Assembly (NCBI GenBank): GCA_028824015.1
Contig: JAPPFC010000017.1
Location: 141,945 to 205,944, forward strand
Direction of reading: 5' to 3'
Source: a bacterium
GTDB taxonomy: Bacteria; Actinomycetota; Acidimicrobiia; Spongiisociales; ZC4RG35
DNA: 64,000 bases
Each line of letters starts with the position of its first letter. Within the stretch, counting starts at the first letter, position 1. Both the position numbers and the translations under genes were made by a program. The notes beneath the pieces are model-generated. The model saw nothing but the letters and a program-made list of their open reading frames with translations, searched no databases and had not been told where the DNA came from. This document shows positions 12,795 to 14,781 of this stretch, one piece after another.

Positions 12795-13307
12795 TCAGGT
12801 CGACAACGCCGCCAGGATCTCCGGAAAAGCGGCTTCGGCAAGAGACTGCATCTCCTGGTCGCTGCGGTCCTGGATGGGATGGGACGTCAGCACCCTGCGG
12901 GGATGCAGACCCAGGGCCTCTCCCTGGGCGTCGGCTGCCTGCGCGAAGCGTTCTGAGGCCACGAAGACTCCCGGAACGCCGCGGTCTTCCAGATCAACGA
13001 GGTCGTGCACACTGCACGACGCGCACGAGCCTCAGTCGGCCAATGCCTCGACCACCGCGGTGCACTCGGCGGCGATCTGCTGGCGCAAATCCAATGGGGC
13101 CGGTTTGGAGAAGGTGGGCTTGCGGTAGTGCTTCACCGACACCCCCCTCTCAGAGAACAGTTCATCCAGCCTCTTGATGAACACGTCGCCTCTCGGCTTG
13201 GATATGTCCAGCAAGGCCACTGTCCCCTCTCCCAGGTCCGGAAGTCGGGGACTGAGTTGTCGCTTCTGGACGGTTCGTTCGCTGGTCGGGTCCAACAATG
13301 CGGTCAT
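12795..13307 (-). CDS. putative selenoprotein with U-G-S-C redox motif (in-frame TGA at 13032..13034 read as Sec)
   Basis: ORFs 13032..13307 and 12795..13010 are in the same frame (both ends are 2 mod 3), separated only by a TGA. Read-through gives ...EALAD-U-GSCASCSVHDL... A 7-bp stem-loop lies 12 nt downstream of the TGA. Confidence 0.5.
13002..13020 (-). promoter_or_regulatory. candidate bacterial SECIS stem-loop (GUCGUGC-AGUGU-GCACGAC) directing Sec insertion at the upstream UGA
   Basis: Perfect 7-bp inverted repeat gtcgtgc/gcacgac with a 5-nt GU-containing apical loop. It starts 12 nt 3-prime of the TGA on the coding strand, the geometry expected for a bacterial SECIS element. Confidence 0.4.
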
Positions 13308-13317
13308 ATGATCCCCC

Positions 13318-14781
13318 TTAGCTGTCGATGGCGACGGTGGTCATCTGCGAACTGGCTGCGCCGCCGATCCAACCGGAGATTATCGCCGAGAACATCCCGG
13401 CGTCTCCTCCGGCGTGGACGAACCACAGGCCTTCGGTGGTGTATTTCGCGAAGTCTTTCCCTCTGGTGGCCACATGTGGCGGCATGCCCTCGGCTACTCC
13501 GCCGGCTCCCGCCGCCAGTTCGGCTCCCGGGAGGGTGAGCAGTGAATGAATCTCCCGGCGCAGCCGGTTCTTGGACCAGCCCGCCTCTCGGAAGATCCGA
13601 GCGTGTTCGGGAGAGACCACCACTATCGCATCGGTCATCCCTGCTAGCTTGGGATGGCCGACCATGCGCAACTGCAGTGCGAAAGTCCTGGCCAGAGATT
13701 CGGGGTTGCGGGACTTCTGGTCCACGATCTCGATCGGCCCGTGGCCGGCGAACAGGGTCACCGCCGAATCGTCGGGAGAGAATCCCCGCTCCACGGAAAG
13801 GGACTCCCAGGGTGACGCCTCCTCGTCTTCGGGGAAGCAGAAGGAGAGCTTTCCCGGGCTTCCCAACGCGGCGCGGTCCACACCGCCCGGTCGGGAACCA
13901 CCCACATTCCTGACCACCAGATTGAGGGCTCGTCCGATGGTCAGGTTGGCCCGGTTGCCTGGCCCCAGGGCATTGATGCCGGAGTTCATCCCTATCCGGC
14001 GGCGGATCGGTCCGTTCACCACCATCACCGGGCCGGTGAAGTAGGTGGTGGCCGAGATGCCGTGGATGTTGAAACGGCTGGTGGCCGCCGCTTTCACCGC
14101 CGCCAGCACCACCGGCAGGTATTCGGGCAGACAGCCTGCCATCACCGCGTTGATCGCCACCTTCTCGACGGTGCACTCGACCAGGTCGGGAGGGAGTACG
14201 CACACCACCTCCCCCGGGAGCCGGGAGGTGCCCTCCAGCATTCTGGCCACCCGTTCCTCGGTCGGGGGCGTCACGGGGAGGCCGTCCGTCCACCCGCGGG
14301 CGAAGGCCGCTTCCACAGGATCTTCGGAGCTTCCCAACTCCACCCGTCGCGAGGAGAGCCGGTGGGGGGAGTGGCGCCGCATCAGACGCTCGTGAACCTC
14401 GGGGAGCATGGTGTCGGAGCCGCAGCCCGGCCGTTGAGCCGGGAGTTTCGCTCCCAGACCCTGAATCCGGGTCACCCGCTCCCAGCCGGTCCTCAGCCAA
14501 CCCGGCTCCTCATCCACGACTTCCCCGTCTTCTATCCGGTAGATGGTGGGGGTGGTCTCGGTCTGAAGTCTCCAGGAGACATCCAGTTCCCGGTCGTGAA
14601 GAACCTCGAACCCGGACGGGAAGTCGGCCCGATCCTGGGAGACCACCGCCAGGAGCTGTTCGCCCGCGGCGAGTTCGGCCAGGACCGGCACCACCATGTG
14701 GCAGGTCTCGCAATCGTCCTTCACCACCGCCAGGAGCCCGCTGGTGATGGGAAGGGACATGGTGGGCTGATCGCTCATCAA
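13318..14781 (-). CDS. uncharacterised protein with N-terminal thioredoxin-like CxxC (CETC) domain
   Basis: 487 aa; N-terminal VVKDDCETCHMVVPVL resembles a thioredoxin-fold CxxC; the remainder has no motif I can name; sits immediately upstream of the selenoprotein candidate. Confidence 0.5.
   Translation of the reverse strand: MMSDQPTMSLPITSGLLAVVKDDCETCHMVVPVLAELAAGEQLLAVVSQDRADFPSGFEVLHDRELDVSWRLQTETTPTIYRIEDGEVVDEEPGWLRTGWERVTRIQGLGAKLPAQRPGCGSDTMLPEVHERLMRRHSPHRLSSRRVELGSSEDPVEAAFARGWTDGLPVTPPTEERVARMLEGTSRLPGEVVCVLPPDLVECTVEKVAINAVMAGCLPEYLPVVLAAVKAAATSRFNIHGISATTYFTGPVMVVNGPIRRRIGMNSGINALGPGNRANLTIGRALNLVVRNVGGSRPGGVDRAALGSPGKLSFCFPEDEEASPWESLSVERGFSPDDSAVTLFAGHGPIEIVDQKSRNPESLARTFALQLRMVGHPKLAGMTDAIVVVSPEHARIFREAGWSKNRLRREIHSLLTLPGAELAAGAGGVAEGMPPHVATRGKDFAKYTTEGLWFVHAGGDAGMFSAIISGWIGGAASSQMTTVAIDS

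Follow-up and report, generated by a model that had tools for sequence, protein, structure and literature searches.

The UGSC family of selenoproteins goes back to what Zhang and Gladyshev named the 'UGSC-containing protein' (PMC1976440, 2007; PMC2398784, 2008). In aquatic metagenomes, it ranks with the most abundant families of selenoproteins. The published model of bacterial SECIS (bSECIS) elements (PMC13188914) specifies an apical loop of 3-9 nt with a G among its first two positions, an upper stem of 4-16 bp, a minimum free energy (MFE) of at most -7.5 kcal/mol and a UGA-to-loop distance of 16-37 nt.

We analysed a 64,000-nucleotide stretch of bacterial DNA (the window), which very probably carries, at 12795..13307 on the minus strand, a UGSC-family selenoprotein gene whose in-frame UGA is decoded as selenocysteine (Sec) by way of a SECIS hairpin and which is coupled to an upstream partner gene; the two products are proposed to form a two-component redox enzyme.

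Structure and family membership of the UGSC gene

The features of the gene are as follows.

12795..13307, minus strand: UGSC-family selenoprotein gene, 170 codons with the putative Sec; ATG 13307..13305, stop TGA 12797..12795
13032..13034, minus strand: in-frame UGA, probable Sec codon (residue 92), which opens U-G-S-C-A-S-C; TGA in 81/81 Sec-type sequences
13312..13318, minus strand: Shine-Dalgarno-like AGGGGGA, which overlaps the TAA stop of the partner gene, 4 nt ahead of the UGSC ATG

Translation of window positions 12795-13307 (minus strand) gave 91 codons, one TGA (13034..13032) and 78 codons up to the stop at 12797..12795. The ORF at 13307..13035, the TGA and the in-frame stretch down to 12797..12795 constitute a single reading frame, with the motif ...EALAD-U-GSCASCSVHD around the UGA. 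The preliminary description of this DNA had noted two minus-strand ORFs in one frame, split only by the TGA at 13032..13034, and our retranslation, with 170 codons, agrees. Public gene calls break the UGSC gene into an ORF of 91 aa and another of 55 or 71 aa; the present reading corrects this mis-annotation, which GCA_028820285.1 and the ENA assemblies share and which turns a single selenoprotein gene into two ORFs. UGA also ends many other genes of the window as an ordinary stop codon. The same coding-potential screen, applied to the whole window, revealed no other in-frame TGA credible as part of a single gene; three further candidates were rejected, each being an ordinary stop that an unrelated ORF happens to follow in frame.

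The read-through product matches the NCBIfam model NF041046, "UGSC family (seleno)protein", with 143.2 bits (cut-off 125), residues 29-168 aligning with profile positions 4-146 of 147, and Pfam PF24696 with 139 bits (cut-off 25; E = 2e-40; positions 2-171 of 172). As the product matches one family model end to end, the continuity of the two halves is not due to chance. In addition, a TGA followed by GSC[TAV]SCSVHD is present in 80/80 of the best relatives (the best 80 of at least 588 relative-encoding stretches of species-representative genomes), which span Acidimicrobiia, Pseudomonadales, Myxococcota, Chloroflexota and others. The preliminary description had proposed a UGSC-family selenoprotein, as these full-length matches and the TGA in 80/80 loci confirm, and had put Sec in place of the leading Cys of a CxxC-like motif; indeed, D-C-GSCTSC of the Cys-type homologues aligns with D-U-GSCASC, Cys with U, in 11/11 full-length homologues aligned. 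These Cys homologues are single proteins, and database entries of ~94 aa stop at ...EALAD, i.e. are truncated at the TGA.

Conservation downstream of the TGA, which had been set beforehand as a test, was observed as well. Relative to the closest relatives of the window (L001-L007), dN/dS is 0.06-0.19 over 75 post-TGA codons, similar to or below that of the upstream half. By this measure, the read-through part is under purifying selection. Invariant residues of the UGSC protein downstream of the UGA include H101, D102, Q128, H143, P144 and E152.

It is thus very improbable that the TGA is a true stop which either separates two small genes or cuts short a gene that a nonsense mutation has inactivated. 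Such a stop would agree with the two-ORF public annotations and with the lack of Sec machinery in the window (see below), but not with a TGA at the same codon in 80/80 relatives from several phyla, the low post-TGA dN/dS within the window's own clade, the contiguous alignment of both halves to one family model or the single-protein Cys homologues. Moreover, the second ORF has neither a Shine-Dalgarno sequence of its own nor a conserved start, and its GTG at 13010 sits inside the hairpin described below.

By its sequence, the gene therefore belongs genuinely to the known UGSC family, as one ordinary member among many. Because the family has been known since 2007, the finding itself holds little novelty, and the earlier expectation that an actinobacterial instance would be notable does not hold, given at least 588 relatives, ~57 of the best 80 of them from Acidimicrobiia/Actinomycetota, and an existing NCBI naming model. 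With this result, a known selenoprotein gains one more user lineage, associated with sponges and probably acidimicrobial, which is routine.

The gap between the partner gene and the UGSC gene is 10 nt in the window sequence. Given this short gap and the Shine-Dalgarno-like sequence that overlaps the partner stop, translation of the UGSC gene appears to be coupled to that of the partner gene upstream.

The hairpin downstream of the UGA and probable selenocysteine decoding

Two RNA elements can be drawn around the UGA.

13002..13020, minus strand: SECIS core hairpin (candidate); stem 13020..13013 : 13009..13002, apical loop GUG 13012..13010, 11-nt spacer after the UGA
12998..13033, minus strand: extended or alternative helix, clade-specific (GAGG:CCUC plus a register-shifted stem); MFE -20.8 kcal/mol, z = -3.2

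The core hairpin at 13020..13002 (minus strand), GUCGUGCA-GUG-UGCACGAC, can be drawn in two ways, with an 8-bp stem and a 3-nt loop or with 7 bp and a 5-nt AGUGU loop. A SECIS-like hairpin of the latter form had been claimed at 13002..13020, twelve nt downstream; we recover it, now with synonymous-site and covariation support, and its first base is indeed the 12th nt past the codon, after a spacer of 11 nt. The same spacer is found in the minimal fdhF element. Folded in isolation, the hairpin reaches -10.9 kcal/mol (z = -3.4; 0/200 shuffles as good). A 71-nt fold around the TGA was no better than shuffles (z = -0.34), so the case for the hairpin rests on comparative evidence.

Across 77 distinct sequences, 98.7% of the cells in the hairpin alignment are paired, and the window hairpin is intact with 8/8 pairs. 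Compensatory changes are confined to three cells in 2/8 pairs (G-C to A-U in L041, L080 and L051); the near-invariance of the hairpin leaves little room for covariation. Of the seven hairpin codons, five have a synonymous-codon entropy of ~0 and the other two a lowered one. Ser+5 is TCG in 74/75, Ser+7 is AGT in 80/80 and Cys+6 is TGC in 81/81 sequences, while Ser+2, outside the hairpin, uses 6/6 codons; synonymous variation thus collapses only at hairpin codons, and the same amino acids outside use all codons. In Cys-type genes encoding the same peptide, the hairpin codons vary, just 5/8 pairs are kept and the fold energy is 0 to -4 kcal/mol. This comparison of aligned genes shows an evolutionary constraint on the hairpin RNA itself.

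The hairpin also fits all four constraints of the bSECIS model (PMC13188914), with a GUG (or A-GUG-U) loop, an 8-bp stem, a UGA-to-loop distance of 19 nt and -10.9 kcal/mol, and A-G-U-G-U agrees with the consensus loop N1-G-[G/U]-N-N2 (PMC13188914). We consider it hardly credible that the hairpin is a by-product of the peptide C-x-S-C-S-V-H-D, or serves pausing or stability, rather than acting as a SECIS. The peptide itself is highly conserved and true covariation events are few, as such readings would have it; however, synonymous sites are frozen only within the hairpin, in Cys-type genes the same peptide is spelled with varied codons and no stable hairpin forms, and geometry, loop sequence and energy fit the published model.

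A scan of the whole window with Rfam gathering thresholds returned only a tRNA-Gly, and no match at the hairpin reached the gathering score of any family. The extended helix at 12998..13033 pulls the GA of the UGA into the stem. Its CCUC partner strand occurs only in the window and in L001-L004, which places the helix outside the conserved core; fold computation suggests that this alternative register is a competitor of the conserved hairpin in the window's own clade.

Scans of ~47 window ORFs with Pfam or NCBIfam models detected no selA, selB or selD in the 64-kb window, and ARAGORN detected no tRNA-Sec in it. The ~8 kb past each window end on the source scaffold (~80 kb in all) likewise held no Sec machinery, and Sec decoding in the host MAG is thus something we infer. 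In related Acidimicrobiia loci (L010, L031 and L041), selD, selA, selB and tRNA-Sec adjoin the module formed by the UGSC gene and its partner. They lie immediately upstream of it in L010 and L041, where selD, selA and selB score above the TIGR00476, TIGR00474 and TIGR00475 cut-offs, respectively; in L031, the same sel genes were detected beside the module by tblastn only.

Read-through without Sec in this organism, with the machinery lost and a near-cognate amino acid or Cys inserted, or with the gene in early decay, appears improbable. The ~80 kb around the locus devoid of Sec genes would suit such a state, but the hairpin is fully intact (8/8 pairs) here and decayed in lineages that switched to Cys, L001-L007 all keep the TGA and the hairpin under purifying selection, and selD, selA, selB and selC sit beside the module in related Acidimicrobiia. 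From what is established about Sec in bacteria, we expect the UGA at 13034..13032 to be decoded as Sec, with the hairpin at 13020..13002, 11 nt past the UGA, probably acting as a bacterial SECIS that recruits SelB-GTP-Sec-tRNA(Sec) to the ribosome.

The partner gene, the UGSC fold and a proposed function

The partner gene comprises the following elements.

13318..14778, minus strand: partner gene, thioredoxin domain fused to an uncharacterised domain; 486 aa from ATG 14778, alternative TTG 14781
14452..14742, minus strand: thioredoxin-fold domain of the partner; CETC active-site motif at 14701..14712
14416..14430, minus strand: P-G-C-G-S motif (Cys120) just past the thioredoxin domain; invariant in 32/32 aligned homologues and present in 74/78 loci
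13321..14364, minus strand: C-terminal domain of the partner, ~350 aa; GW(T/S)DGLPVxPPT, invariant Cys203, Cys217 and Cys315, no Pfam family

The upstream neighbour had been described as a thioredoxin-fold CxxC protein. This is accurate for the first ~110 of its 486 residues, to which the thioredoxin (Trx) fold with CETC is confined; the protein is not just a thioredoxin, a large uncharacterised domain being fused to it. The partner lies directly upstream of UGSC on the same strand in 78/80 Sec-type loci and is adjacent, with a 4-nt overlap, in 5/5 Cys-type loci. It matched no Pfam or NCBIfam model, and relaxed Pfam scans of all aligned partner and UGSC sequences yielded no consistent second family. 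The C-terminal domain was found in 5,505 representative proteins at E <= 1e-3, in stand-alone (~350 aa), tandem (~710 aa) and Trx-fused architectures and fused to UGSC in either order. Some of the UGSC/partner-domain fusions end exactly at U, and stand-alone copies of the domain also adjoin split UGSC genes. Judged by this gene order and these fusions, the ~350-aa C-terminal domain is an obligate or near-obligate companion of UGSC. Comparison of the partner with solved folds returned nothing beyond the Trx domain, PDB profile searches gave marginal thioredoxin matches for the partner and none for UGSC, and a model of the C-terminal domain, of moderate confidence, has no recognisable fold.

A Trx-like fold was suggested for UGSC in 2008 (PMC2398784). 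We used an AF2 model of a Cys homologue (P0001; 50% identical to the window protein), which has a pLDDT of 92, comprises five beta-alpha units and places Cys94, the residue that corresponds to U, after strand 86-92 and ahead of helix 95-110. According to this model, the UGSC fold is flavodoxin-like rather than thioredoxin-like; a Trx fold, with a mixed beta-sheet and CxxC at the N-terminus of helix 1, is contradicted by it. By analogy with the Cys homologue, Sec would sit at the end of strand 3, just ahead of helix 3, in a flavodoxin-like alpha/beta fold, and would open a U-x-x-C-x-x-C motif able to cycle through a selenenylsulfide. Invariant non-Cys residues (D34, K37, R39, G40, K63, T65, H101, D102 and H143) are located at strand ends in the model, which suggests a ligand pocket in UGSC.

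The Cys-type loci have informative neighbours: a GntR/FCD regulator is adjacent in 5/5, TctABC transporters and a MaoC dehydratase recur, and in one locus (L081) a thioredoxin-reductase-like gene overlaps the partner. Beyond the partner, TrxR, Tct and GntR genes are absent from the neighbours at the 80 Sec-type loci, which display only lineage-level synteny, e.g. prolyl oligopeptidase and flavin reductase; the catabolic genes that flank the Cys-type loci are all missing there. In the window, MsrB and dnaK-grpE-dnaJ genes are found 3-6 kb from the UGSC gene.

From gene neighbourhood and fusions only, we suggest that UGSC and its partner may constitute a two-component thiol/selenol redox enzyme, in which the N-terminal thioredoxin domain of the partner would probably supply electrons to the Sec/Cys centre and whose substrate might be a small organic acid or amino-acid derivative. 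More specifically, and tentatively, UGSC and the protein with the ~350-aa 'GWxDGLPVxPPT' domain could possibly represent a widespread uncharacterised enzyme, with a route from thioredoxin reductase via thioredoxin and a Sec/Cys-x-x-Cys centre to a substrate derived from organic acids or amino acids, which that centre would reduce or rearrange in aerobic aquatic and symbiotic bacteria. If so, UGSC would belong to a new kind of thiol/selenol-dependent catabolic enzyme, and its rank among the most abundant selenoproteins of aquatic metagenomes would be explained.

It appears rather unlikely that UGSC instead serves as a general antioxidant or as a thiol-disulfide oxidoreductase, e.g. a disulfide-reductase or peroxidase-like protein that the Trx domain recycles, and not as a subunit of a substrate-specific enzyme. 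The UxxC redox motif, the fusion or adjacency to thioredoxin, the MsrB and dnaK-grpE-dnaJ genes 3-6 kb off in the window and the placement of UGSC among redox proteins of unknown function (PMC2398784, PMC13188914) point in that direction. However, the modelled fold is flavodoxin-like, not Trx-like, with strand-end invariant residues that suggest a ligand pocket; pairing with a large conserved 350-aa domain is obligate, and fusions to that domain occur; and what adjoins the Cys-type genes is GntR/FCD regulators, organic-acid transporters and MaoC dehydratase rather than stress genes. A near-obligate partner with its fusions, a flavodoxin-like fold, a suggested TrxR-to-Trx route and regulator and transporter neighbours make the function of UGSC experimentally approachable.

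Comparison with known systems

The protein encoded here resembles the UGSC family in its full-length match above a curated cut-off, U-G-S-C at the Sec/Cys position, a length of ~170 aa and an aquatic or host-associated aerobic bacterium as host. There is no essential difference; this copy has Ala instead of Thr at U+4 and stands unannotated (split) in the public record.

The hairpin is like bacterial SECIS elements of the E. coli fdhF type in being a stem-loop inside the coding region straight after the UGA, and unlike the fdhF SECIS in that it lacks a bulged U and does not resemble fdhF in sequence. Such near-invariance across phyla is not typical of bSECIS elements; the probable cause is that the hairpin overlaps the codons of the conserved active-site peptide.

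The UGSC/partner-domain fusions probably represent the same association as the 'UGSC/Unknown_1 fusion' of the GOS selenoproteome paper (PMC2398784, Fig. S1A). The operon-level pairing, the Trx-fused form and the size of the domain family, described here, are absent from that paper as far as its accessible parts go.

D-proline reductase (PrdB/PrdA) and glycine reductase (GrdB/GrdE) also combine UxxC selenoprotein subunits with a larger partner and a thioredoxin system. They differ from UGSC in that sequence homology is not detectable (Pfam gave no match to GRDB or Gly_reductase, even at E <= 5, with GRDB matching none of 31 UGSC sequences), in that the partner here gives no sign of being pyruvoyl-forming and in that UGSC hosts are aerobes, not Stickland fermenters. 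We claim no membership, and the PrdB-PrdA parallel is a loose one, of logic only: in both cases, a small UxxC selenoprotein gene adjoins, and is sometimes fused with, a larger partner, with a link to thioredoxin or thioredoxin reductase supply and, in some loci, catabolic neighbourhoods.

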